A stretch of DNA of 64,000 bases from Acidobacteriota bacterium (GTDB lineage Bacteria > Acidobacteriota > UBA890 > WLXD01): positions 1,600,001 to 1,664,000 of the forward strand of contig CBDBHB010000009.1 of NCBI GenBank assembly GCA_965205505.1. The letters are read 5' to 3'. Below, piece by piece: positions 1,877 through 15,126 of the stretch. Position 1 is the stretch's first letter. Each line of letters opens with the position of its first letter. The notes beneath the pieces are model-generated. The model was not told the origin of the DNA and made no database searches. It saw nothing but the letters and a program-made list of their open reading frames with translations. A program made the translations under genes and the position numbers.

Positions 1877-2563
1877 ATGACGATGAACGAGCACGACTTC
1901 TTGCGCCGCGCGTTCGAGGAACGCGCCACCGCGATTCTGCGCACCGATGATCAACAGACGGCGGCCCGCGCCATGGAGGCTGTGGTCCGCGGTGGCTTCC
2001 GCATTATCGAATTCACCCTTGGCTGTCCGGGGGCCTATGAGCTCATCGAGGACTTCGCGCGCCGCGATGACTTGCTCGTCGGTGTGGGCACGGTGCTCGA
2101 GCCTGAGCAGGCTCGCCGCGCCGTCGAGGCGGGCGCCTCGTTCGTGGTGTCGCCGGCAACCGACGAAGCAGTGATCCGCACCGCGCTCGAGCTCGGTGCG
2201 GTGGCCATGCCCGGCGCCTATACCGCCACCGAGATGGTTCTGGCGCAACGCGCCGGAGCGCAGCTTCAGAAGCTGTTTCCGGCGCCGGCGAACGGTCCGG
2301 AATACGCGCGCATGTTGCTTGGTCCGCTGCCTGGGCTCCGCCTGGTGCCGACGAGCGGCGTAACACCCGACAATGTAGGGGAGTGGTTCGCTGCCGGGGT
2401 CTTCGGGGTCGGGTGGGTCGCTAGCCTGTTCGACGCAGACGACCTGCGAGCCGGGCGCTTCGATCGCATCGAAGAACGCGCCAGGCAATGCCTCGCGGCA
2501 ACCCGCGCGGCGACGCGGCCGCAACGCGATTGGGGTCTGACGACCGCCGCGGCGATGGTCTGA
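1877..2563 (+). CDS. eda: KDPG/KHG aldolase
   Basis: AILR, IIEFTL, VGVGTVL, FVVSP, KLFPA and PTSGV motifs; start placed at ATG 1877 or 1883. Confidence 0.88.
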   Translation: MTMNEHDFLRRAFEERATAILRTDDQQTAARAMEAVVRGGFRIIEFTLGCPGAYELIEDFARRDDLLVGVGTVLEPEQARRAVEAGASFVVSPATDEAVIRTALELGAVAMPGAYTATEMVLAQRAGAQLQKLFPAPANGPEYARMLLGPLPGLRLVPTSGVTPDNVGEWFAAGVFGVGWVASLFDADDLRAGRFDRIEERARQCLAATRAATRPQRDWGLTTAAAMV

Positions 2564-3456
2564 TGACGAGCGCTCGATCTATAACGCTCGTCGCCAGCCT
2601 GGTGCTGGCGGCCTGCGGAACGGAATCCGTCGAAGATCTGCCGTACGACGCCGACGCGCATCGCGAAGCTGTGGAGTCGTGGCGACAATGGCGCCACGAT
2701 CAGCTAACGCGTCCCGACGGCTGGTTGTCGCTAGTGGGCCTCTACTGGCTGGAGCCCGGCGACAACTGGCTCGGCTCCGCCGACGACAACAAGCTGGTCT
2801 ACGATAGCTCCGGGGTTCCGCCGCGACTCGGCGTGTTCCGCGTCGCGGGCGACTCGGTGATGTTCATCGCCGCCGAGGGTGTCTCACCCAGCGTCGACGA
2901 TGAGCCGGTGGAGTCGGTGTTGGCTCACGACGGTGGTGAGGGCTCCGGGCCGGTGATCGCCTGGGACACGCTGCGCTGGAACGTGATGGTGCGCCAGGGC
3001 GAGTTTGCGGTGCGGCTAAAGGACGCAAGCAGCGTTGTGCTGACCAGCTTCGAGTCGATCGACAACTTCCAGCTTGCTGCCGAGTGGCATCGATCGGGCC
3101 GTTACGTGGGCTACGAGCCAGCGAAGATCATCAAGGTTCCGAACGTGCTCGGTACCGTTGCCGACGTCGAGTCGCCGGGTGCGGCGGTCTTTGAAATCGA
3201 CGGTAAGACGTACCGGCTCGACCTCCGGAAAGACTCGGACGACTCGGTAAACTTCTTCACCGCTTTCGGCGACCAGAGCAACAACGAGTCGACCTATGGA
3301 GCCGGTCGGTTCCTTTGGATCGATGCGCCCGACGACCAGGGCCGTGTGGTAGTTGACTTCAACCGTTCCTACAACCCGCCCTGTGCGTTCACCGCTTTCG
3401 CCACCTGCCCCCTGCCACCGCAACAGTGCCGCGCCGTGATTCAAGGCGTTTCGTGA
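2563..3456 (+). CDS. DUF1684 lipoprotein; native C-terminus displaced by the integrated element
   Basis: Lipobox LAAC; motifs GWLSLVGL, TYGAGRFL and DFNRSYNPPCAFTAFATCPLPP. The last ~9 codons derive from the element; the native tail is at 14019-14066. Confidence 0.9.
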   Translation: MTSARSITLVASLVLAACGTESVEDLPYDADAHREAVESWRQWRHDQLTRPDGWLSLVGLYWLEPGDNWLGSADDNKLVYDSSGVPPRLGVFRVAGDSVMFIAAEGVSPSVDDEPVESVLAHDGGEGSGPVIAWDTLRWNVMVRQGEFAVRLKDASSVVLTSFESIDNFQLAAEWHRSGRYVGYEPAKIIKVPNVLGTVADVESPGAAVFEIDGKTYRLDLRKDSDDSVNFFTAFGDQSNNESTYGAGRFLWIDAPDDQGRVVVDFNRSYNPPCAFTAFATCPLPPQQCRAVIQGVS

Positions 3457-3541
3457 AGACACCAATCTAGGGAATATTCCCTACCCTCAGCCGTTATTGT
3501 GGTGCACGCGAGCTCGACTTGTTACACTATGTTTCGTTCAT

Positions 3542-3561
3542 TTGTGACCTTTGCGTGACCT
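3542..3561 (+). promoter_or_regulatory. Putative integrase arm-type sites (left)
   Basis: TTGTGACCTTTGCGTGACCT, a tandem GTGACCT repeat; 18/20 identical to 13878-13897. Confidence 0.7.
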
Positions 3562-3573
3562 CAAGAGCATGGA

Positions 3574-4836
3574 ATGCCACCGCTGACGGCTCGTCGGGTA
3601 TCGGGCGCCAAGGCCACCAGCAAGGCCTACGCGATCCCCGATGGCACGGTACCCGGCCTTGAGCTTCGGGTTTCGAGGCACGGTGCGAAGACCTTTAGCC
3701 TCCGATACCGGATTGGCGCATATCAGCGCCGACTGACGCTGGGCTCGGCCAGCTTTCTCACCTTGGCCGACGCCCGGGACATGGCGCGAGAGGCACTCCG
3801 GAACCTCAAGAAGCGGGGCATCGATCCGGCAGAGGTGCAACGCGTCGCCCGCAACGCGCTGAGTTTCGCGGGTCTCGCTGAGCTCTACCTCGATCGGCGC
3901 GCCTTAGGCCGTACTGCGGGAGCGCGAGATGCGACGGGTGGCCTTGTCGAAGACGTTTGGGCACTCGCAAGCGCCGAAGGTTCCCCGACCATAAGGGGAT
4001 GGAAAGAGGAGCGGCGCTACCTGGCTAACGAGGCGCTTCCGGCGTGGCGTCATCGGCCGGCCGACTCAATCACGCGCCGCGATGTTCGATCGCTCGTCGA
4101 AGGTGTCGCGGATCGAGGGGCCCCCGTCTCAGCAAACCGTCTGCTTGGCCTGCTGCGCCGCGTCTTCGCTTGGGCCGTTGAGCAGGAGTTACTCCCGGCC
4201 AACCCGGCCGCTGGGATGAAACCGCCGGGCGGCCGAGAGAAGGCTCGCGATCGCGTTCTCAACGACGACGAGATCCGCCAATTTTGGCAGGCGACCGAGG
4301 GCATGGACCTCACGTCGCGCGCGTTCTGGCGACTGCGGCTGATCACCGCCCAGCGCTCCGGCGAGATCGCCACGATGAGTTGGCGCGACATAGACCAGGC
4401 GCGGCGCTGGTGGACGATTCCGGCCGAACGCGCCAAGAACGACTTGGCCCACCGCGTCTCCCTCACCGGGATGGCACTCGATCTGCTGCAGCAACTCCGA
4501 GAGCAAGGCATAGTGAGCGCGACGCTGGTGCTGCCGGAGGTGCGCAACCGTCGCCGTCTTCGCGCATCGGCGAGAGCTTTCGAGGGGATCCCTGACTTTC
4601 GCGGCCACGATCTCCGGCGTACGGCCGCGTCGGGCATGGCGAGCGCGGGGGTTCCCCGCCACCACATCGGGCGCGTTCTCAATCACGCGGAGACGGGAGT
4701 CACAGCGACCTACGACCGTCACATCTACGACCCAGAAAAGCGCCGCGCGCTTGAAGCGTGGGAGGCCGAGCTACGCAAGATTCTTGACGGCCGGCCCTTC
4801 CGGCAGGCTGGCGGGCAGGGGCGCCGGGGCGGATGA
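3574..4836 (+). CDS. int: Tyrosine integrase, P4-like, with N-terminal arm-binding domain
   Basis: PGLELRV...KTF...RRLTLG arm domain; catalytic R (TAQRSGE), K (AKN), HDLRR, LNH and Y are all present. Confidence 0.95.
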   Translation: MPPLTARRVSGAKATSKAYAIPDGTVPGLELRVSRHGAKTFSLRYRIGAYQRRLTLGSASFLTLADARDMAREALRNLKKRGIDPAEVQRVARNALSFAGLAELYLDRRALGRTAGARDATGGLVEDVWALASAEGSPTIRGWKEERRYLANEALPAWRHRPADSITRRDVRSLVEGVADRGAPVSANRLLGLLRRVFAWAVEQELLPANPAAGMKPPGGREKARDRVLNDDEIRQFWQATEGMDLTSRAFWRLRLITAQRSGEIATMSWRDIDQARRWWTIPAERAKNDLAHRVSLTGMALDLLQQLREQGIVSATLVLPEVRNRRRLRASARAFEGIPDFRGHDLRRTAASGMASAGVPRHHIGRVLNHAETGVTATYDRHIYDPEKRRALEAWEAELRKILDGRPFRQAGGQGRRGG

Positions 4837-5777
4837 GGCAGCGTAGCCGCCGCCTCGAGCCGGAGCGCGCCACCCGCACGCGCGCCGAGGTCGCCTTCGC
4901 GAACGCGGTTATAAAAGTCCTTCCGGCTGAAGCATGCAGGGAGCTAGAACCGATTGCCGAAGAGTTCAACGACAAGACACGTGAAACTCTACGACAGCGG
5001 TTCATACCGCGGCTCGAGCGAGCCGGATTCACGGACCTATTTAACCGAGCTGGCGTCACCAAGCAACGCGATATCGAGGCATGGCTCCGCGATGCCGCGC
5101 CGCCCGAGATTCGGCAGGTGGTCGCCGAGTTCAACCGTGCCGCAGCGGAGCGGCAAAGGCAGTACGAGGACCGGATCGGCGACTGGCTGCGAAAGCGGCA
5201 CCTCTACTGCCCAATCATGGAAACCTGGGTGGGCCATTGGATCAACAGTTTCTTGAGGACGGGCCGCCCCCCGGGCTGGAAGGGGCGCGAGCACAGGTGG
5301 GTTAGCTTTCCGGTAGTTTCACAAGAGTGGGATCAGGTGCTCGCCGGGTTTGATGCCTTGAAACCGTTAGGCGCCCCTCGGGTTGGCGATGCTGAATTAG
5401 ACGATGATGCGTTCTTGGCTCCACTATCCTTGAACCCGCTCGGTGAGTCTCCTGACCAAGCGCTGGAGCGGGCTCGTAAACACTACGCGGCCCGGGCAGC
5501 CGCGGCCGAGTCGCGTGGCTATGTCCCGGTGCTCGCCCGGCACCGGCTGGACGACCACGCGCGCTGGCTCGCGCGGCATCAGGTCCTTGGGGAATCGGTC
5601 GAGGAGATCCTCGCACACGAGCCGAGTGTGTCCGACCGTCGGACGATCGAAAAGGCGCTAGAGAACCTGTGTCGTGATTTGAAACTTCGGAAGCGCCCCG
5701 CGAAGCGCGGCCGTCGGCCGGGCGCCAAGAACTCGGCGAGAAGCCGGAGGGTGAGTCGACGGCGCACGGCGAAATAG
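4833..5777 (+). CDS. Hypothetical satellite protein with a basic, possibly HTH-like C-terminus
   Basis: ATGA overlap with int; sits in the position typical of PICI-like regulators. Confidence 0.6.
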   Translation: MRQRSRRLEPERATRTRAEVAFANAVIKVLPAEACRELEPIAEEFNDKTRETLRQRFIPRLERAGFTDLFNRAGVTKQRDIEAWLRDAAPPEIRQVVAEFNRAAAERQRQYEDRIGDWLRKRHLYCPIMETWVGHWINSFLRTGRPPGWKGREHRWVSFPVVSQEWDQVLAGFDALKPLGAPRVGDAELDDDAFLAPLSLNPLGESPDQALERARKHYAARAAAAESRGYVPVLARHRLDDHARWLARHQVLGESVEEILAHEPSVSDRRTIEKALENLCRDLKLRKRPAKRGRRPGAKNSARSRRVSRRRTAK

Positions 5778-5842
5778 GGAATTCGTTTCGGCGTTACGAA
5801 TTCCGCTATATCAATTCGTCCGGGGATGGTCCCCTCCGGTGC

Positions 5843-6085
5843 ATGGATAAGCACCAAGTCACCCGGAAGCCTGATCGGATCATTCCCGAGCCGCAAACGA
5901 GAGAACGTCTCGGCGGCATCTCGCGAACGACGCTCTGGCGCATGACTCGAGCGGGCATTTTCCCGCGCCCTATGCGTATCTCGCCCGGCCGCATCGGCTG
6001 GCGGGAGTCCACCATCGAGGAGTATCTCGAGGCTCGTGAGCGCGAGGCCGCGAGATTTTCCGTTCCCGGCCCGGACGATGGCTGA
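5843..6085 (+). CDS. alpA: AlpA-family excisionase/regulator
   Basis: LGGISRTTLWRMTRAGIFPRPMRISPGRIGWRESTIEEYL is the AlpA signature. Confidence 0.92.
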   Translation: MDKHQVTRKPDRIIPEPQTRERLGGISRTTLWRMTRAGIFPRPMRISPGRIGWRESTIEEYLEAREREAARFSVPGPDDG

Positions 6086-6145
6086 CGCAGGAAACCCCGG
6101 CCACCGGGCAACTAACCGGCACGATTCTGATACTGGATCCGCGCT

Positions 6146-7852
6146 ATGAGCACGCAGGACGGTCCGGCGACTGACGGCGACAACGTCCCGGTCCCGGCAG
6201 AGGAGATCCCGTGGGAGCCCCCTGTCCCATCGGCGCGCGACCGGTCGCTAGAGGCGCGGGCCGCGCGCGCTATCGAAGCTGGCGCCGACGAGTTGGAACC
6301 GGCGACCCCGCACCTGGCCACCGTGCAGGCGTGGATCAGCGCACAGAAGCTAGCGCGGGCGGAGGCAAAGGCCGAAGGTGAGAACCCCCGCGGCGACTTG
6401 AACGAGATCCTCGAGGAGTTGGCGAAGCTCGACGTCGCAGACTACGAGCCACTGCGGTCCGAGCTGAAGCGCCTGTCTGGCTGGCGAACCGCGGTGATCG
6501 ACAGCGAGCGCGCGAAGCGGCGCCGGCAGCGCCCCACGGAAGGCCTCGCCGAGGGCCTGGGCGCCTCGGCGGTCGTCGCGGACGTTGAGCCGTGGGCTGA
6601 TCCGGTGGATGGAGCGGACCTGCTGTCTAGCATAGCCCGGTGCTTTGGCCGGTACGTGGTTCTTCCCGAAGGCGCCGCGACAGCCGCGACCCTTTGGGCG
6701 GTGTTTTCGCACGCCACCGCCTCTTTCGATATCTTCCCGCTCCTCGCGATTTCGAGCGCGGAAATGCGATGCGGCAAGTCAACGCTGCTCACAGTCCTGG
6801 GCCGTCTCGTGCCGCGTGCGATCCCGGCCTCGAACGTGAGCGCCGCCGCGCTTTTTCGCTCCGTCGAGCTGTGGAAACCGACGTTGCTGGTCGACGAGGC
6901 GGACAGCTTTCTGACGGACAACGAGGAGCTTCGCGGCGTCTTGAACTCGGGCCACCATCGTGCAAACGCGTACGTCGTGCGCTGCGATGGCGAGGCTAAC
7001 GAGCCGCGCTGCTTTTGCACATGGGCGCCCAAGGTCGTGGCGTTGATCGGCCGCCTGCCGGCCACGCTGGCAGATCGTTCCGTCAGAATCCGCATGCGGC
7101 GGAAGGCGCCTACAGAAGAAGTCGAGCGCGTGCGCCTAGACCGGTTCGATGTCGAAGAGCTGTGTCGCAAGGCGGCGCGCTGGGCCGCCGACAACGCCGC
7201 CGAGCTTCGGGCCGCGGACCCCGAGTTGCCGGAGAGCCTTGACGACCGGGCCTCCGACAACTGGCGGCCGCTGGTCGCGATTGCCGACCGCGCTGGCGGG
7301 AGGTGGCCGGAGCGTGCCCGCAAGGCGGCCGGGTTGCTTGCGGGCAATGGGGACGACGACAGCGCCTCCGTCGGCGTCATGCTCTTGGCCGATCTCAGGG
7401 AGCTGTTCGCGGAGCGCGGGGTCGACCGGCTCCGGTCATCCGAGATCGTTGAAGCGCTCGTCGAGCGGGAGGAACGGCCGTGGCCGGAGTTCCGCCATGG
7501 CAAGCCAATAACGGTTCGGCAGGTCGCATGGCTGCTACAGGCATTCGAAATCCGGCCGCAACAGCTCCGCGTCGGCGCCGGCAAGTTCCGGGGCTACCGG
7601 AAGAGCGACCTCGTGGAGACATGGAAGCGCTACCTCCCAGAAGGCCCCCCTATTTCATCCGGTACACCGGTACAAGGCCCGCCGGACGGGGCTTTTCCTG
7701 TACCGGATCACCCGGACGGATCCGGGACTGTACCGGATCGTGTACCGGATGAGAAGACCCAGAAACGCCTGCCCCGCAAGGGTTGTACCGGTGTACCGGA
7801 TGGATCCCCCCCTCCCCGGCGCGCAATACACTGCCGGGCGCCACGGAGCTAG
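6146..7852 (+). CDS. DUF3631 replication/helicase-associated protein (P-loop)
   Basis: VEPWADPVDG, CGKST Walker A, LLVDEAD Walker B, DRASDNWRPL, WPEFRHGKPIT and RGYRK motifs. Confidence 0.88.
   Translation: MSTQDGPATDGDNVPVPAEEIPWEPPVPSARDRSLEARAARAIEAGADELEPATPHLATVQAWISAQKLARAEAKAEGENPRGDLNEILEELAKLDVADYEPLRSELKRLSGWRTAVIDSERAKRRRQRPTEGLAEGLGASAVVADVEPWADPVDGADLLSSIARCFGRYVVLPEGAATAATLWAVFSHATASFDIFPLLAISSAEMRCGKSTLLTVLGRLVPRAIPASNVSAAALFRSVELWKPTLLVDEADSFLTDNEELRGVLNSGHHRANAYVVRCDGEANEPRCFCTWAPKVVALIGRLPATLADRSVRIRMRRKAPTEEVERVRLDRFDVEELCRKAARWAADNAAELRAADPELPESLDDRASDNWRPLVAIADRAGGRWPERARKAAGLLAGNGDDDSASVGVMLLADLRELFAERGVDRLRSSEIVEALVEREERPWPEFRHGKPITVRQVAWLLQAFEIRPQQLRVGAGKFRGYRKSDLVETWKRYLPEGPPISSGTPVQGPPDGAFPVPDHPDGSGTVPDRVPDEKTQKRLPRKGCTGVPDGSPPPRRAIHCRAPRS
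7657..7801. repeat. Iteron-like TGTACCGG repeats bounded by a perfect 19-bp inverted repeat (putative origin)
   Basis: ATCCGGTACACCGGTACAA (7657-7675) is the reverse complement of 7783-7801; TGTACCGGAT also at 7699, 7729 and 7741. Confidence 0.75.
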
Positions 7853-7898
7853 ACCGCAGCGACGACGACCAGCCACTCGGATGGGTAGAGGTTCTAAC

Positions 7899-8216
7899 GT
7901 GAGCGACCGCGCCATCGGTGTAAGCCTGCTGCGAGAGGCCCGCGACGCCGGCCTGATCGTTGCCCTCGATGGCGACACGGTTCGCCTGCGAGCTTCGGCC
8001 GAGCCACCCCAGGTGCTCGTTCAATCGCTCCGGCGCCACAAGGACGCGCTTGTGCGGGCACTCCGCAGCGAACACTGCGGCATCGGCGCCGCGCGACCGC
8101 CCGAGAGAACCTGCCACTCCTGCGGAGGCGGCCTCCAGCCGGACGACGATGACTTGTCTTTGTGTTCGGCGTGCCGATGGTACGCGGACCGCTTTGCCCC
8201 AAGGCGGATGCAATGA
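7899..8216 (+). CDS. Small satellite protein (TubC-N-like fold plus CxxC...CxxC zinc finger)
   Basis: GTG start with GAGG RBS; LLREARDAGLIVALDGDTVRLRA...LRRHKDALVRAL followed by CHSC and CSAC. Confidence 0.6.
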   Translation: MSDRAIGVSLLREARDAGLIVALDGDTVRLRASAEPPQVLVQSLRRHKDALVRALRSEHCGIGAARPPERTCHSCGGGLQPDDDDLSLCSACRWYADRFAPRRMQ

Positions 8217-8340
8217 AAAGCCGCCTTGCGTCCCGCCAAGGCCGATCTGCCCGTGGTGCGGGGACAACTGCGCCGCGTGTCGCGTCAGCCCCAGAACGCC
8301 CTGCGACAAGCCCGCCCGACAGGCCCCCCCGGGGGGCTGT

Positions 8341-8400
8341 AGGTTCTTCCGGGGCTTTCCGTCAACGGGTGTGTTCGGCGCAGAATAACGTAAGTTTTTT
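8341..8400 (+). other. Putative cos-like packaging site
   Basis: AGGTTCTTCCGG...ACGGGT...GTTTTTT immediately upstream of the terS-like gene; resembles the lambda cosQ/cosN layout. Confidence 0.4.
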
Positions 8401-8423
8401 GTACGGCTCTAAGGGGTTATGGG

Positions 8424-9590
8424 TTGTCTAAAGGTCAAGCACGCACGGCGTGGGTCGGCCGCAACAGCAAAGGACCCTCGGAGGCGTTCGAAGGGCTCGC
8501 CGATGGTTGCTCGATCCACGGCCTCTCTGACGGGACGTGGTCGCTGATCGACGGGATTGAATACCTGCTCGACCGGTGCGGACCGAGCGATGTCACGGTC
8601 TCGACCTGGACCGCGGCGAACGCGGATATCGAGCGGGCGGAGAGACTCCTGCAGGACGGGCGAATCAAGACGCTCCGGCTACTCGTTGACCGGTCGTTCG
8701 AGGGTAGGCAGCCCCGCTACTGTGGCCGCGCGCGGCACCTATTCGGCGATCAAGCGCTCCGGGTGTGGAACTCGCACGCGAAGTTCGCGCTCGTCCTGGG
8801 TGGGAAGCTCGACGTGCTGTACACCACGTCGGCGAACCTGAACGCCAACAAGCGCCTCGAGAACTTCACGCTATTCGCCGGTGGCGACCTGCCCGGGGAA
8901 TACCTCGCGGCGGTGGAAGAGCTGTGGAAACTCCAAAAGCCGGGCGAAGCCTTCGAGGGTGGGTCGTTCCTTGGGCGTGCTCATACCGAAGAGATTCTCG
9001 GGGTCGAAAAGCTACTCGGGCGTGCGGAACTGTCGGCCGCTTTAGGCCGGAGCGCGAAGGGGATTGCGAAGCTGGTAGACGCTGGGATGCCGGTGGCGAG
9101 GCGCGGTTCGAGTGGCCGGCCGCATGGCTACAGGCTCGAGGATGTCGAGGTGTGGATGGCGTCGCGCGACGAGACGCGCCAGCCGGGCGAGTTTCTCGAC
9201 GCGGTGCGCGAACGGGCGCTCAAGGAGCGGGCGCAGAGGCATCTTGCCGAGCAAACGCTCGAGGTGCGGGCCGGGGAGCTCGTGGCGGAGGACGAAGTGA
9301 TAGCGGAGTGGAGCGGGCATGCGGCCGCGGTGCAGACGAAGCTCGTGGCGATCTCCGCCGCGCTGCCGCGGACCGGGGCCACGGGGAGCACGTGCTTCGT
9401 AGACGAAGGCCAGTGCGTCGCGTTGCCGACCCCGCGGTGTTTGATCCGATGTCACGCCGCCCAGCCGACGGACAGCACCACCGCTTGCTGGAGCACGGCC
9501 TGCGCCGCCCTTTCCTGTTTGTCGGGCGGAGCCATTGAGACCGCACAGGTGATCGCGGAGCTGATCCAGTTGACCCCCGGAGATGCGTGA
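8424..9590 (+). CDS. PLD-superfamily nuclease domain fused to a Nu1-like terminase small subunit; C-terminus corrupted after ~9370
   Basis: N-terminal STWT, LLVDRS, HAKF and SANLN motifs; then [11 protein letters not shown]...AGMPV...YRLEDVEVW wHTH, a coiled coil and GELV. Last residues read into an hsdR remnant. Confidence 0.75.
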
Positions 9591-9702
9591 GGCAAGTGCC
9601 CGCGGTGAAGAGCTGAGGCTATCCAAGGATGAGCTGGCCTTCTACGATGCGCTGGAGACCAATGACAGCGCCGTCCATGTGCTCGGTAACGACACCCTGC
9701 GC
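9531..9702 (+). pseudogene. Fragment of type I HsdR C-terminal domain (DUF3387), frameshifted
   Basis: [14 protein letters not shown] / [41 protein letters not shown]. Confidence 0.85.
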
Positions 9703-9992
9703 AGTGCTGGAGCAAGCCGAAGTGCTGTCCGCAGAGGTGGGATGCCTGAATCGTTGAACGACCCGCACAGCTTGCCGCCTTATCGACGCATTGAAACAGC
9801 GACACTTCGGCGTTGTCGTCAGCAAGACCTGTGGCCGCCTGCTTCGCACGCGGGCGACAGTGGGTGGTTCACCGACGGCCTAGTCGACGCTCATCTGCGT
9901 GAGGCCGTGATTACGCTGTCGGAGGCTCGGAAGGCCCTCGAGGACCTGGCGAGAGCGCCCGGAATCCGCAGCGGGGACACGCCTGGCCGTTG

Positions 9993-10466
9993 ATGACAGC
10001 GGTAGCCCGGGGCGCCAAGCGACGGAAACGGCGAGAACTTGCACGTCGTGGCGGCCCATCACAAAATCGTGCTAGGGTCCGTCCGAAGCTATTCGAGTAT
10101 GTGGACCACAGAGGAGTCCTCGCGATTTCGTCCTGGCGAAAGGATCTCCAGCCTGGGCAGCGCGGCGCGTTCGACGACAAGGTCAGACTGCTCAAAGAGC
10201 AGGGTGCGGAACTCTCCGTCTCCCATACGATCCTTGCCGGTCCTGTCGAGAAGCACCTTTACAAACTGCGGTTCTCCGCTGGACGCGTGCAGCTGCGCCC
10301 GGTGTTATGCAGGGGCCCGATCGTTAACGCCAGCGAGTTCACGTTCTTAGTCGGTGCCAAGGAAAAAGGCGACAAGATGATCCCACGTAACGCGTACAGC
10401 AAGGCGCTAGAATGTCGGCAGATCATTCGCGGCGACCCTGACCGGAGACACGAATATGACTGCTGA
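9993..10466 (+). CDS. RelE/HigB-like toxin (start uncertain, possibly GTG 10100)
   Basis: FEYVDHRG...ISSW...LYKLRF...LRPVLCRGP...FTFLVGAKEK; overlaps the downstream HTH gene. Confidence 0.65.
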   Translation: MTAVARGAKRRKRRELARRGGPSQNRARVRPKLFEYVDHRGVLAISSWRKDLQPGQRGAFDDKVRLLKEQGAELSVSHTILAGPVEKHLYKLRFSAGRVQLRPVLCRGPIVNASEFTFLVGAKEKGDKMIPRNAYSKALECRQIIRGDPDRRHEYDC

Positions 10467-11064
10467 GATGAACCGCATCCGCGAAGAGTTCCGGGATCCA
10501 GAATACCGGCACGGATACATCCAATCGTTCGTCGACTCCGTGGTCGCCAGCCAGGTCCGGATCCTTCGAAAGCACCACGGCCTGTCCCAGGCGGAACTCG
10601 CGGAGAAACTCGGCACGAAGCAATCCGCTATCTCGCGGATCGAGGACCCGAACTCTTCGGCGTGTAGCGTGACGACGCTGAAACGGCTCGCAAAGGTGTT
10701 CGACGTGGGCCTGTCAGTGCGCTTCGAGAGCTTCGGCGAGATGCTATTCGAGATTGAGGACCGTAGCCCGGACACACTGTGGCAACCTTCCTTCGACAAG
10801 GATCCTGCCTTCCAATCCCGACCGGCGTTCGTGACGCACTCAGACCCAGAGCCGTCGCAAGGGAGAGAGTTTTTGAAGCCTTTCTCTAACGCCTTGGCGG
10901 AAGACTGGCGTGAGCAAGTTCTCCCTGTTGAGGGCAAGGGCCTCGACCAGCCTCTCGCCACCTCTAAGCAGCCCCTTAGTGACGCACGCGCTTCGCCGGA
11001 CACGTTCCGAATAGCCAGCGCTACCTCCACTTCTCCGCATGTTAGGGACGGGGCAGCTGCGTGA
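10456..11064 (+). CDS. XRE-family HTH antitoxin (HigA-like) with long C-terminal extension
   Basis: LRKHHGLSQAELAEKLGTKQSAISRIE...TTLKRLAKVFDVGLSVRF, followed by ~90 aa of S/P-rich tail. Confidence 0.85.
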   Translation: MTAEMNRIREEFRDPEYRHGYIQSFVDSVVASQVRILRKHHGLSQAELAEKLGTKQSAISRIEDPNSSACSVTTLKRLAKVFDVGLSVRFESFGEMLFEIEDRSPDTLWQPSFDKDPAFQSRPAFVTHSDPEPSQGREFLKPFSNALAEDWREQVLPVEGKGLDQPLATSKQPLSDARASPDTFRIASATSTSPHVRDGAAA

Positions 11065-11759
11065 AAGTGCGCCGCTTGGAAGTCACACAGACCCGTATCT
11101 TCAGGTCCGATGTTCTCCCTGTGAGCGCCCTGCTATCGACGAAGCTTGGGAGTCATCTTGTGTCGCAGTTCGGCTTCGGTGACGTACGCCCGAATCTGGT
11201 TGAAGGTGAGCTTGACTCGATCATTTACGCTCGCGGGTCGCTTGAGTTGGATGATGAGCGCTCGGTGTTAATTCTCAGCATGGCGGTGGGGCCTCGCCGG
11301 ATCGTATCGGCCATACACGGACCATCTGCCGACGCAGACGAGTTCTTCGCCCGGATCGTGCACATCCTGGCCGAACTGGGCTACGGTGAGCCGGAGACAC
11401 TCGTCCCCGTCGTTGCGGCTGAGGAGAGCGTGTGTGTCTGCACGCTCGACATCAACTTCGGCGCGATGTTCTCCCCGGCGCTCCACGAATTCGTCGCCGA
11501 TACAGTGGCACCGGCAACGGCTAGCCCCTACGCCGACCATCATGAATTGATGCCTCAGCGACTTGGGTTCCGCGTGAGATACAAGGCCGCTGAAGACGTC
11601 ACGTCATTCGAGGCGAGCCTTGCGGACAAGATCTTCGTTCTCGAACCAAGAACGGGTGCCGGAGACGGCGAGCCGCTGTACTACGCGTCGCTGCCGGGCT
11701 CGACGGACGCTTTAATCAGAGTGCTCAATGAGCTCGAGACAAGATTCCCGCCAGCGTAG
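11061..11759 (+). CDS. Hypothetical protein coupled to the TA pair (candidate chaperone/third component)
   Basis: GTGA overlap with the antitoxin stop; 232 aa mixed beta/alpha sequence. Confidence 0.7.
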   Translation: MKVRRLEVTQTRIFRSDVLPVSALLSTKLGSHLVSQFGFGDVRPNLVEGELDSIIYARGSLELDDERSVLILSMAVGPRRIVSAIHGPSADADEFFARIVHILAELGYGEPETLVPVVAAEESVCVCTLDINFGAMFSPALHEFVADTVAPATASPYADHHELMPQRLGFRVRYKAAEDVTSFEASLADKIFVLEPRTGAGDGEPLYYASLPGSTDALIRVLNELETRFPPA

Positions 11760-11901
11760 TCTTCCTTTTGCGGGGTGAGCCGGTGCTCGGCAAAGGGCTT
11801 GCGAGACATCAGCCCTCACCTCGACACTACCTCGCCTGGAGGTTGCTTCCGCCCTGGGGCGGGGGAAGCAAGGCCAAGTCGAAGCGATTCGGGTAGGTCA
11901 C

Positions 11902-12411
11902 ATGGTGAAGAGGACGATGTGTTTGCTGTCAGCACTTGCAGTCGGCTGCGCGAGCACAGCGTCGGTGCCGGAGCTTGGCACGGTGCCCGGGAGCGAAGCG
12001 CAGGGGCAGTCATCGTGGCGTGGTTTGGTGGTGGCGCCGGAGCGGCGATATTCACCGTACGAGGCGGGTGCGTACCGGTACTCGCAGTCGGTTGAGGATC
12101 GCATCGTCGCACAACTCGGCGGAGTGTACGGCCCGTATGCAGGACGCTGGTTCGCATCCAAGTCGGAGACCGACATCGAGCACATCGTGGCGCGGTCGGA
12201 AGCGTACGATAGCCGTCTATGCGCCGCCGACGGGGCGACGAAACGACAGTTCTCCAACGATCTGATCAACCTGACATTCGCTGCGCCGGACGTGAATCGG
12301 TATCAGCAACGGGACCATGATGTGTCGATCGGCCGTTGGTACCCGGCCGGGTTCATCCGTTGGTACATGCGTGCCGTGGCCGGTGAAGTCGGGCCGGTGC
12401 TCGCCTACTGA
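11902..12411 (+). pseudogene. DUF1524/HNH-like lipoprotein, truncated and fused to a Rieske-oxygenase C-terminal fragment
   Basis: Lipobox AVGC; DIEHIVARSEAYDS...FSNDLINL...N motif. The tail PAGFIRWYM... matches the end of the 58100 gene. Confidence 0.75.
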
Positions 12412-12413
12412 CC

Positions 12414-13523
12414 GTGTCGAGCGCGGCGGCACCGAGCCCGCGGTTCGCGTTCATCGACGGGTTGCGTGGCCTGGCTTCGCTGAGCGTTGCGTTGTCGCAT
12501 CTCGTGTGGCTGCTGCCGTACCCGCTGCCGCTGCTCGAGTACGGTATGCACGGCCTCGAAGCGTTTTTCGTCATCAGCGGCTTCGTGATCGCCCATGCGC
12601 TGCGACGAACTCACGTAACCTTCGCCTTCGTCGGCAACTTCCTCTTGCGCCGATCGGTCCGCCTAGACCCCGCCTACTGGATCGCGATCCTGGGGCAGTT
12701 GTTCGTGCTGTGGCTGTGGTCAGAGCCTCTGCCGAGCCTCGCGGTCATCGGTTTGAACGCCGCCTACCTTCACGACCTGGCGCAGGTGGCCCATGTCGTT
12801 GAGGTGTCGTGGACGCTCTGCCTCGAGTTCCAGTTCTACATCGTCTACGTCATGGTCCTGGGGCTGAGCCAGTTGCTGGCAGCGCGGCTCGCCACCCCCG
12901 TCGGCCGAGTACGTATGGCGCTCTTCGGATCGCTGACGGTTCTGTCCGTGCTCTCGGGCATTCCCTGGGGAATCCACCCTTGGCTCGAGGCGATCGGCAA
13001 CGTTCCGGGGCTGTTTGTTTCACTCTGGTACATGTTCTTCCTGGGCGTAGCAGTGCAGTGGACGCTGACCAATGAGCTGCACCGTGCTTGGTTCGTTGCC
13101 TTCCTCGTGGCACTGGGGGCTGTGGCCTGGCTCTGGCGCGACCCTGTGCTCGTTCCACGCGACGAGATCAGCCCGGCAATAGCCCTTGCCACCGCGCTGC
13201 TCGTATACGCCGCCGGCTCGCTGGGTCGGCTACCAGCCGCCCTGGGGCAAGGCTGGCTACAGTACTTCGGCAGGATCTCCTACAGCCTCTACTTGGTGCA
13301 CGTGATGGTGGGCATGAACCTGGTCTACCTAGGCGAGCTCCTGCATGGGTCCGGGCCCGTCGCGATGATCGCTTGGTTCCTGGCCGCCTTTGGCGCCAGC
13401 GTTCTCGCGGCTCATCTCCTCTACGTTGCCGTGGAGCGGCCGAGCCTGCGGCTGATCGAGCGCCTGAAAGGACGCCAACTAGCTCAACCTCGACGCTCAC
13501 CGAGGGTGGGCGCCGTCGTGTGA
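12414..13523 (+). CDS. Acyltransferase family 3 (OafA/YrhL-like)
   Basis: IDGLRGLA, FFVISGF, SWTLCLEFQFY, GRISYSLYLVH and VERP motifs; multiple TM segments. Confidence 0.93.
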   Translation: MSSAAAPSPRFAFIDGLRGLASLSVALSHLVWLLPYPLPLLEYGMHGLEAFFVISGFVIAHALRRTHVTFAFVGNFLLRRSVRLDPAYWIAILGQLFVLWLWSEPLPSLAVIGLNAAYLHDLAQVAHVVEVSWTLCLEFQFYIVYVMVLGLSQLLAARLATPVGRVRMALFGSLTVLSVLSGIPWGIHPWLEAIGNVPGLFVSLWYMFFLGVAVQWTLTNELHRAWFVAFLVALGAVAWLWRDPVLVPRDEISPAIALATALLVYAAGSLGRLPAALGQGWLQYFGRISYSLYLVHVMVGMNLVYLGELLHGSGPVAMIAWFLAAFGASVLAAHLLYVAVERPSLRLIERLKGRQLAQPRRSPRVGAVV

Positions 13524-13543
13524 CGGGTCGCCGCCGTCACGGG

Positions 13544-13759
13544 TTACGTACCCGGGTACTCGGTGAAGAGCACGACGTTGCCCTCCGAGTCGGTCGCGAC
13601 GAGCTGCGTGTAGCCGGGTTGGTGATCGATCCCCGTGCGGTCATTGATGGCAGGTATGTGCGGGAATACAGACCCCTGCGCGCAAAGGTACTCGTAGAGT
13701 CGATCCACCGATCGGACCCAGAAGCTCACGTAGCCATTAGCTTTACCGGGCCGCAACAA
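13544..13759 (-). pseudogene. VOC/glyoxalase C-terminal fragment
   Basis: VSFWVRSVDRLY...ATDSEGNVVLF; no clear N-terminus. Confidence 0.5.
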
Positions 13760-13877
13760 CTCCTAGGCGTCGACGCGGCCTTGTATGGCGACCGTTGGGC
13801 CGAAGCCTTTCACTGCCGCAACTGACCGCCTCAATCACCCTGAATCGCTGCGCGTTCCCCTGGATGGGCCTGTCAAG

Positions 13878-13897
13878 TTGTGACCTCTGTGTGACCT
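13878..13897 (+). promoter_or_regulatory. Putative integrase arm-type sites (right)
   Basis: TTGTGACCTCTGTGTGACCT, matching 3542-3561. Confidence 0.7.
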
Positions 13898-13971
13898 AAT
13901 AGCAACGAACGCACGCAGTCTACCGGGACGATATCGACCGTAAATAGCTTATTTCATTTGAGTTATTTTAA

Positions 13972-13997
13972 GTCTGGGTGAGAGGATTTGAACCTCC
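13972..13997 (-). other. tRNA-Pro-like 3' remnant (T-arm plus acceptor strand), not a full tRNA
   Basis: Minus strand reads GGAGGTTCAAATCCTCTCACCCAGAC; no D or anticodon arm upstream. Confidence 0.75.
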
Positions 13998-14018
13998 TGA
14001 ATACTGTCACTGCAGCAG

Positions 14019-14066
14019 AATCGCCTGCCGCTGCGCATCGAAGCCGGCGAGAGAACCTTCAAGTAG
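14019..14066 (+). pseudogene. Displaced 3' end of the DUF1684 gene
   Basis: NRLPLRIEAGERTFK* continues CPLPPQQ to give the typical DUF1684 ending. Confidence 0.9.
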
Positions 14067-15126
14067 CTGGTGTGCGGACCGTTTCGGGGGCGGCGTCTGC
14101 GCGGTCGGAATCGAGCGTCTCGGCGATTCTGTAGGGCGTCTGGCCGACCGCCTCGTAGTACGTGCGCATTGCCATCTCTGCTAGCAAGCCCGTACTGACT
14201 ATCTGGATACCGATGAGCACCAGCCCGAAGGCGACGATAAGCAGGGGACGGTTGGCGATGGGTTCGAACACCACGAAGCGCACGTACGCGAGGTAGGCGA
14301 GCAGCGCTGTGCCGGCGAGTGTCAGGCTGCCCCCCAGGGCACCAAAGAACAGGAACGGACGCGTCGCATAGCCGAGCAGGAAACGTACCAGCAGGATGTC
14401 GAGCACGACCTTGAACACGCGAAACAGCCCGTATTTCGTGGTTCCGGCGACGCGCGCCCGGTCGCTGACGGGGATCTCGGTGATGCGCGTTCCTTGCCAG
14501 CTGGCGATGGCCGGGATGAAGCGGTGCAGCTCGCCGTAGAGCTTGATGTTGCGCAGAATCTCGCGCCGATAGCCTTTCAGCGAGCAGCCGTAGTCGTGCA
14601 GCGATACCCCAGTCGTTCGAGAGATGATGCGATTGGCGATCATCGAGGGCAGACGTCGGGTCAGGAACGGCTCCTTACGGTTCAGTCGCCAGCCGCTGAC
14701 GATATCGAAGCCCTCATCCATCTTGGCCAGCACCATCGGGATGTCGGCCGGGTCGTTCTGCAAATCGCCGTCCATCGTCACCACGACATCACCGCGAGCC
14801 GCCTCAAAGCCGGCCGAGAATCCCGCCGTTTGCCCGAAGTTTCTCCGTAGTCGGATGATGCGCCAGCGATCATCGCGTCGATGCACGTCGCGCAGCTTCT
14901 CGAACGTGCCGTCGCTGCTGCCGTCGTCGACGATCACTACCTCGTAGGGACGCCCCAGATGCTCCAGCGCGCTCGTAATCTGTTCGTATAGAGGTTCGAC
15001 ATTGTCGACCTCGTTGAACATCGGGACCACTATCGATAGGTCAACGGCGGCGCGCGATCCGGGTCGCGTCTCGGCGGCCAACGCCGGGGAGGAGCCGGAG
15101 GTGGCCGGTCCTGATACTCCGGTCAC
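14059..15126 (-). CDS. GT2 polyprenol-phosphate glycosyltransferase (ArnC/GtrB-like)
   Basis: SIVVPMFNE, VDDGSSDGT, RRNFGQTA, MDGDLQNDP and YGELHRFIP motifs; two C-terminal TMs; GTG start 15126. Confidence 0.92.
   Translation of the reverse strand: MTGVSGPATSGSSPALAAETRPGSRAAVDLSIVVPMFNEVDNVEPLYEQITSALEHLGRPYEVVIVDDGSSDGTFEKLRDVHRRDDRWRIIRLRRNFGQTAGFSAGFEAARGDVVVTMDGDLQNDPADIPMVLAKMDEGFDIVSGWRLNRKEPFLTRRLPSMIANRIISRTTGVSLHDYGCSLKGYRREILRNIKLYGELHRFIPAIASWQGTRITEIPVSDRARVAGTTKYGLFRVFKVVLDILLVRFLLGYATRPFLFFGALGGSLTLAGTALLAYLAYVRFVVFEPIANRPLLIVAFGLVLIGIQIVSTGLLAEMAMRTYYEAVGQTPYRIAETLDSDRADAAPETVRTPAT

Follow-up and report, generated by a model that had tools for sequence, protein, structure and literature searches.

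The 64,000-nucleotide stretch of contig CBDBHB010000009.1 analysed here (the window), from an Acidobacteriota bacterium, carries three overlapping genes at positions 9993 to 11759, which we read as a three-gene toxin-antitoxin (TA) module on a small integrative island. The product of the third gene, a member of an unnamed family, would be a guardian, possibly also a sensor, of the antitoxin, whose long C-terminal tail it would bind. Based on families, predicted fold and genomic context, we give this reading as a whole, tail-binding guardian included, a probability of roughly 0.55. The order and coupling of the genes, their family relations, the fold model of the third protein and the link between antitoxin tail and third gene were computed here.

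Gene 1, the putative toxin gene, was taken from the list of open reading frames (ORFs) at 9993..10466 (+ strand; 157 aa from ATG 9993). It is followed by gene 2, the putative antitoxin gene (10456..11064, +; 202 aa, with an HTH_3 match), and by gene 3 (11061..11759, +; 232 aa from a GTG start). An earlier note on this DNA had described three overlapping genes, and this was seen in full: the ORFs of genes 1 and 2 share 11 nt, those of genes 2 and 3 share 4 nt (GTGA), and all lie on the same strand. The GC content drops to ~0.60 at 10001-12000 compared to 0.65-0.69 just upstream.

Gene-3 homologues lie behind toxin-antitoxin pairs of three families

Gene 3 was found in three of 61 related genomes, namely the window's own, G003 and, as a fragment, G007, and a search with the profile of the gene-3 family was positive in 7 of the 401 genomes examined from the phylum. 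In G003 the whole triad, 53-55% identical to that of the window, is located at the edge of a prophage-like region, adjoining a tRNA-Arg gene. Three distant genomes of the same phylum (G244, G070 and G128) carry a Gp49-like toxin, an XRE antitoxin and a gene-3 homologue, and the order of toxin, antitoxin and third gene is thus kept in these three as well as in G003.

Loci outside the phylum were drawn with sub-alignment A7, which has the motif SPTDS[EKD]THL. This search returned six genome loci, from Acidobacteriota (two), Thermodesulfobacteriota, Dadabacteria, Nitrospirota and Spirochaetota, and a further 25 metagenome loci. None of the six genome loci had a Gp49/XRE pair; five had a HicA/HicB pair, with the HicB-family antitoxin directly upstream of the gene-3 homologue, and in the remaining one a BrnT toxin and a CopG/BrnA-type antitoxin were found upstream. 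A gene-3 ORF was present in 24 of the 25 metagenome loci, with a complete upstream gene in 18, one cut by the contig end in three and none in three. Sixteen of the 18 complete upstream genes were tested, L024 and L026 being omitted as duplicates of L023, and all 16 belonged to the HicB family; a HicA_toxin match was obtained for 3 of the 16 small genes preceding them. The HicB- and BrnA-type antitoxins extend for 70-119 residues beyond the last residue matched by Pfam, with the exception of L025 (114 aa). No locus was found with alignment A1 in genome contigs, and the A7 subfamily of gene 3 was absent from the viral contig collection.

The co-occurrence of the three genes, which the earlier note had proposed to look for, was borne out: a gene-3 homologue lies directly 3' of a TA pair (Gp49/XRE, HicA/HicB or BrnT/BrnA) in 27 of the 28 loci whose upstream DNA could be read, from at least five phyla, and 26 of these 27 antitoxins have a long C-terminal extension. 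The gene-3 family would then be a modular accessory of long-tailed antitoxins, a view that is part of our favoured reading and shares its slightly better than even odds.

Two loci within the phylum look different. In G072 (L010, 774-2580) one gene-3 homologue stands without a recognisable TA pair upstream, preceded by a 202-aa protein without family and followed by an HNH endonuclease (E 1.2e-11), and may represent another type of module. In G007, which belongs to a different genus, gene 3 is reduced to its C-terminal 148 aa (L005, G007:C2 9160-9606). By eye, this fragment is identical in protein sequence to the G003 copy; it sits directly downstream of a restriction-modification methylase gene, joined to it out of frame, and adjoins transposase genes. 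The same genome retains, at another place (G007:C2:3768351-3768566), the remnant of an antitoxin gene broken by 1 TAG, and fragment and remnant together suggest recent transfer followed by decay.

Long antitoxin tails and a third gene occur together

The relation between tail and third gene was examined from the side of the antitoxin, by searching residues 1-120 of gene 2 in the 401 genomes of the phylum. Matches were obtained in 45 genomes, and 28 returned loci were examined, the window's own and that of G003 being left out of the count. Three of these loci were gene-3 triads, ten had a DUF3467 protein in third place, and 15 had no third gene by these profiles. The tail after the helix-turn-helix (HTH) domain measured 74-101 residues in the loci with gene 3 and 67-125 residues in those with DUF3467, compared to -13 to 36 residues where no third gene was present (15 loci), and the groups (67-125 versus -13 to 36) therefore do not overlap. 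In other words, a long tail and a third gene were found together in 13 of 13 loci, and a long tail in none of the 15 without a third gene. Together with the presence of gene 3 behind long-tailed antitoxins of three TA families, this gives comparative support to the earlier suggestion of an architecture like that of toxin-antitoxin-chaperone (TAC) systems.

The ten DUF3467 triads (L054, L055, L058-L061, L063, L064, L066 and L068) consist of a Gp49-like toxin, a long-tailed XRE antitoxin and a DUF3467 protein of 101-127 aa that matches PF11950 in all ten cases. No similarity was detected between DUF3467 and gene 3 (hhalign 0.24%) or between DUF3467 and the SecB alignment from seven loci (hhalign 0.23%), and the DUF3467 profile found nothing among the sequences of the PDB (best E 0.56). 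The full-text literature on DUF3467 yielded one unrelated paper, and the family is essentially undescribed. InterPro presumably groups it with SecB-like proteins. Since gene 3 and DUF3467 both follow homologous antitoxins, the slot can be occupied by either of two unrelated proteins, which would be expected if the accessory is exchangeable.

Gene 3 is predicted to form a TBP-like saddle

Gene 3 belongs to a sizeable family that the libraries do not name. Exhaustive searching with the profile returned 306 cluster representatives at E<=1e-3, 194 of them at E<=1e-10. The 150 relatives listed span 158-259 aa, almost all being ~230 aa, and the match covers nearly their full length; a word-index search had returned two relatives, of 97% and 54% identity. 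Within the family, R79, K190 and E226 are nearly invariant. Gene 3 has no model in Pfam (E<=0.1), NCBIfam, PADLOC or PHROGs. Neither NCBIfam nor PADLOC assigned a family to 18 members, and 145 aligned members gave no meaningful Pfam family, with two single weak matches and SecB in 0 of 145. That PADLOC 2.0 has no model for the triad bears on a point of novelty that the earlier note had left to such a search.

The same note had proposed structure prediction for gene 3, and the AlphaFold2 model built from the 145-row alignment is confident (predicted local distance difference test, pLDDT, 95.7; predicted template modelling score, pTM, 0.89), compared to an unusable one from a 3-sequence alignment (pLDDT 39.5). 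In the model, two repeats of strand, helix, strands and helix (aa 1-105 and 118-228) form a saddle: two tandem alpha/beta repeats make a curved antiparallel sheet with the helices on one side, as in the TATA-binding protein (TBP) fold. The best match of a wide structural search was an archaeal TBP (1mp9_B; Z 9.7, root-mean-square deviation 3.8 A over 163 residues), followed by further TBPs (5fur_A, Z 9.5; 7o4i_O, Z 9.2). Other matches included the tRNA-binding N-domain found in archaeal-type SerRS enzymes (Z 8.0 and 7.9), as well as the VCR/KA1 domain of METTL16. Foldseek likewise returned TBP with a probability of 1.00 (TM 0.41-0.54 depending on target length), and the viral fold library BFVD gave giant-virus TBP-like proteins alone and no informative phage protein. 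The predicted structure is thus a double TBP-like saddle and not SecB. The earlier guess that gene 3 is not SecB agrees with this, given the lack of a Pfam match and of any relationship between alignment A4 of gene 3 and the SecB alignment A12 (hhalign 0.22%); SecB was also not among the best 50 rows of the wide fold search, which is no evidence that the two folds differ. Its companion guess, an internal duplication, is seen in the two TBP-like repeats of the model but not in the sequence, where the N- and C-terminal halves show no repeat (hhalign 2.7%). The likeness to the TBP superfamily, with two repeats of the S1-H1-S2-S3-S4-S5-H2 type, a beta-sheet saddle and helices on top, is one of fold only: identities are 7-12%, and gene 3 is acidic, bacterial and TA-linked.

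The best fold matches all bind DNA or RNA, and the partner toxins (Gp49/HigB, HicA and BrnT) are all RNases by family. One may therefore ask if gene 3 is instead a nucleic-acid-binding component that sets its saddle on RNA or DNA, with the antitoxin tail as a mere tether or linker; such a protein might detect the nucleic acid of phages, or associate with the RNAs that the RNase toxins cut or generate. We consider this unlikely. A common fold shows no function, and gene 3 is acidic (isoelectric point, pI, 4.85), as is the family (median pI 5.56, with 120 of 145 members below pI 6), which fits protein binding better than general DNA binding. Moreover, the strict link to long antitoxin tails would be left unexplained.

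An enzymatic role, suggested by the conserved motifs SPTDSETHL and IEPR, was also considered for gene 3 and set aside because the window protein reads LPGSTDALI at the SPTDSETHL position.

Gene 1 is a divergent relative of Gp49/HigB toxins

Gene 1 was called RelE-like in the earlier note. Direct recognition failed, with 0 matches in Pfam (E<=0.1), NCBIfam, PHROGs and PADLOC, and a word-index search found no relative beyond gene 1 itself; remote homology was detected. The toxin at the same position in another triad, L011, passes PF05973 (29.1 bits versus a cut-off of 23.9) and had three relatives in the word-index search. The profile of its clade (A9, two of whose three database homologues carry PF05973) aligned with that of the window clade (A10) at 96.7% by hhalign (E 4.3e-10, 114 columns). 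A chain of hidden Markov model searches starting from gene 1 reached the L012 toxin at E 4.8e-13 and that of L011 at E 0.016 (Z=1e6), and 14 of the 30 nearest atlas clusters of gene 1 belong to the set carrying Gp49. The toxin profile gave chance-level matches alone among PDB sequences (best E 0.11). Since same-position toxins of other triads bridge the homology, gene 1 is, as judged by profile homology, a remote relative of the Gp49/HigB toxins of the RelE/ParE superfamily. Gp49-family toxins are described as ribosome-dependent mRNases (PMC11980606), and by family analogy gene 1 is predicted to be a ribosome-dependent mRNA endonuclease.

The gene caller gives a shorter form of gene 1 (P0003; 121 aa, start GTG 10101). 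The G003 orthologue has GTA, which is no start codon, at the position aligned to GTG 10101, and a start there would remove the first conserved strand of the protein (FEYVD / HEYVD). The upstream stretch RRKRR(E/Q)LA differs between the window and G003 by synonymous third-position changes in six of eight codons, which marks it as translated. For these three reasons, ATG 9993 is better supported as the start than GTG 10101. It gives gene 1 a basic N-terminal extension of 36 aa (9993-10100; RRKRR; pI 12), which is conserved at the protein level in G003 and absent from more distant homologues.

An imperfect palindrome, ATCAC-N6-GTG (10058..10071), falls within what is probably coding sequence of gene 1; it had earlier been noted as overlapping promoter-like hexamers, a reading that finds no support. 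The palindrome exists, but its pattern occurs once in the 64-kb window compared to 2.08 times expected by chance from shuffles, and a scan of 9500-12500 gave 0 sigma-70-like promoter sites and 0 terminators. Its sole support as a possible operator, and a weak one, is a similar and better 5+5 palindrome (ATCAC-N6-GTGAT) at the corresponding position in the G003 sequence.

Gene 2 is an XRE-type antitoxin with a fast-evolving tail

An HTH_3 domain occupies aa 35-86 of gene 2 (nt 10558-10713; Pfam E 5.8e-12) and is also matched by HTH_31 (E 2.8e-9). As a Cro/C1-type HTH gene located directly after a toxin gene, gene 2 conforms to the XRE/HigA type of antitoxin. Ahead of the domain lies a conserved N-terminal segment (aa 1-34, + strand; alignments A3 and A6), and behind it a C-terminal extension of ~110 residues (aa 93-202, nt 10732-11061, + strand). 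Residues 1-120 are 76% identical to the G003 orthologue (91/120), compared to 23% for residues 121-202 (19/82), so that the extension appears to be fast-evolving. The long disordered tail proposed for gene 2 in the earlier note is confirmed as a long extension, whereas its disorder is a matter of composition only, 71% of residues 121-202 being disorder-promoting. The N-terminal segment, the HTH domain and a short stretch after it are common to five aligned XRE antitoxins from such triads, and the HicB-type tails have a helical-looking stretch in common and nothing beyond. By analogy, gene 2 is predicted to neutralise the toxin via its conserved N-terminal part and to repress the operon.

The triad is carried by an integrative island

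The triad lies within a 10.6-kb island (3427..14007) that is absent at the same site in two congeneric genomes, where positions 3426 and 14008 are adjacent (G004, 94-95% identity; G002, 80-81%). The junctions are marked by an 11-bp direct repeat, caccgcaacag at 3416..3426 (+) on the left and cactgcagcag at 14008..14018 (+) on the right, identical in 9 of 11 positions; this imperfect repeat was found by genome comparison and had been missed by the direct-repeat finder. Just inside the right junction, 13975-14000 on the minus strand resembles a tRNA T-arm and acceptor (ggttcaaatcc...) and may be an att-associated tRNA fragment. ARAGORN found no whole tRNA in the window, and Rfam gave 0 matches in 2000-14500.

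The island encodes a P4-type integrase (3574-4836), a DUF3631 protein (6146-7852) and, at 8424-9590, a 388-aa ORF that combines an endonuclease-like part (aa 19-175; phrog_16945, E 8.3e-31) with a small-terminase-like (TerS-like) part (aa 196-314; phrog_57, E 2.9e-15). An HsdR C-terminal remnant (9583-9760) is located just upstream of gene 1: the first 40 aa of the ORF at 9583-9993 match T1RH-like_C (E 2.6e-10), and the frame 9629-9757 continues with an HsdR-like ending, so that the region looks like a decayed gene for a type I restriction R subunit. Directly after the triad, 11902-12411 encodes a small GmrSD_C-like lipoprotein, in which a lipoprotein-like signal (LAVGC) is combined with a nuclease domain of the GmrSD_C / HNH type (E 1.8e-5), followed by an acyltransferase gene (12414-13523). 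The island is a mobile element with defence-flavoured cargo. The region earlier described as satellite cargo is a real insertion with an integrase, a DUF3631 protein, a TerS-like segment and the imperfect repeat; no capsid-related or helper-interaction gene was identified in it, and it is a possible rather than an established phage satellite.

Comparison with known tripartite systems

TAC systems join HigBA, HicAB or MqsRA with a SecB-like chaperone, which recognises a C-terminal extension of the antitoxin and protects the antitoxin (PMC5105189). In the E. coli HigBAC system, a phage tail protein competes with the antitoxin extension for the chaperone (10.1101/2024.02.24.581848). The triad resembles the TAC systems (M. 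tuberculosis HigBA1-SecB(TA), E. coli HigBAC and CmdTAC) in its operon order of toxin, antitoxin and third gene, in the C-terminal antitoxin extension, which is absent from two-gene relatives, in the use of the third gene with several TA families including HigBA and HicAB, and in its mobile or defence contexts. It differs in that the third protein of TAC systems is SecB, whereas here it is modelled as a 232-aa double TBP-like monomer without a PF02556 match, and in that BrnTA is a partner TA here. To our knowledge, all described TAC cases use SecB homologues. PF02556 was found in none of 41 related genomes searched, the window's own included. Taken together, the triad fits a tripartite TA system of the TAC kind whose partner protein is not SecB, by analogy of its layout.

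Two-gene Gp49/HigB-HTH pairs (PF05973 and XRE) likewise have the toxin first and the HTH antitoxin second; the triad adds the basic 36-aa toxin extension, the ~110-residue tail and the coupled third gene, and the short-tailed two-gene relatives have no third gene. In the DUF3467 (PF11950) triads the same slot after a homologous toxin and long-tailed XRE antitoxin is occupied, by proteins that differ from gene 3 in their smaller size and in having no detectable sequence similarity to it. HipBST and PaaR-PaaA-ParE also consist of three coupled genes and involve an HTH protein, but they have neither a TBP-like protein nor the antitoxin-tail signature; in these systems the third place is taken by a split antitoxin or by a regulator. 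In the full-text literature searched, no description of the gene-3 family or of a TBP-like third TA component was found, although supplementary tables of TAC studies and subscription journals could list such partners. NetFlax explicitly covers two-gene systems only (PMC10440598).

A proposed guardian of the antitoxin tail

Under our favoured reading, gene 3 would bind the antitoxin tail, probably on the broad beta-sheet face of its saddle, and thereby keep the antitoxin soluble or shielded from proteolysis. Once a trigger such as a phage protein occupied or removed gene 3, the tail would be exposed, the antitoxin destroyed and the toxin freed. This scheme would parallel that of the SecB-like chaperones in TAC systems, here with an unrelated protein. 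We read gene 3 as a tail-binding guardian because it shares with TAC systems the gene order, the antitoxin signature and the promiscuity towards TA families, and it is by this analogy that we infer binding, stabilisation, toxicity, the trigger and a role in defence.

Several observations weigh against this reading. Nothing in this analysis demonstrates that gene 3 touches the tail; a complex prediction for gene 2 (A6) and gene 3 (A4), run without controls, is neutral on the point, with interface scores (ipSAE) of 0.00 and 0.00 against a mark of 0.32. Because gene 3 has no similarity to SecB or DUF3467, the functional analogy rests on gene context. No conserved tail motif was found among the five XRE antitoxins of the triads or among 19 HicB-type antitoxins. 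The correlation of tail and third gene partly reflects descent, since the loci carrying a third gene are those most closely related to the query antitoxin, and the HicAB-linked sample is biased because it was drawn with the motif SPTDS[EKD]THL, which is absent from the window protein. Gene 1 scores below the gathering score of PF05973, and its assignment to Gp49 was made from profile homology. Finally, TBP- and KA1-like domains often bind nucleic acids and the toxins are RNases, which leaves room for an RNA-directed role.

Alternatively, gene 3 could be a second neutraliser, a toxin-binding subunit like HipS in HipBST, leaving the HTH, HicB or BrnA protein chiefly to bind DNA as a regulator. 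A division of roles among three components is known in other TA systems, such as HipBST, and gene 3 is translationally coupled to the antitoxin. We nevertheless find this improbable: the partner toxins are unrelated in sequence, presumably with at least two different folds, and one protein is unlikely to neutralise all of them; in addition, the antitoxins retain their own conserved toxin-facing parts. More improbable still is a transcriptional co-regulator of the operon, like PaaR in paaR-paaA-parE. TBP is a classical DNA-binding fold, but gene 3 is acidic, the antitoxins already have DNA-binding domains, and the link between tail and third gene would be given no reason. That gene 3 is unrelated cargo hitch-hiking behind an ordinary two-gene TA pair, as its lack of a known function in family libraries and the G007 fragment kept away from any TA pair might suggest, is hardly credible for a gene whose homologues lie immediately downstream of pairs of three TA families in 27 of 28 assessable loci from at least five phyla, and whose start codon overlaps the stop codon of the antitoxin gene.

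The guardian reading can be carried further, though only tentatively, and we regard the following extension, taken as a whole, as a possibility short of even odds. The gene-3 family would be a second, SecB-independent class of "addiction partner" for TA systems, its saddle holding the disordered tails of HigA-, HicB- and BrnA-type antitoxins and doubling as an infection sensor, with phage proteins competing for the saddle and so releasing the RNase toxin. As a sensor cassette that can be exchanged, it would be widespread in Acidobacteriota, Nitrospirota, Thermodesulfobacteriota, Dadabacteria and Spirochaetota, lineages that often show no canonical SecB, and DUF3467 may be a third class, unless it is SecB-like.

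Chaperone-based TAC systems are the best-understood case of phage sensing by TA systems, the chaperone being both guardian of the antitoxin and sensor. If our reading of gene 3 is true, "antitoxin tail plus guardian" would be a general design that evolved convergently, a point that the parallel DUF3467 triads would widen. It would also provide a new sensor module to test and recombine, and assign a role to an unnamed family of ~300 sequence clusters.

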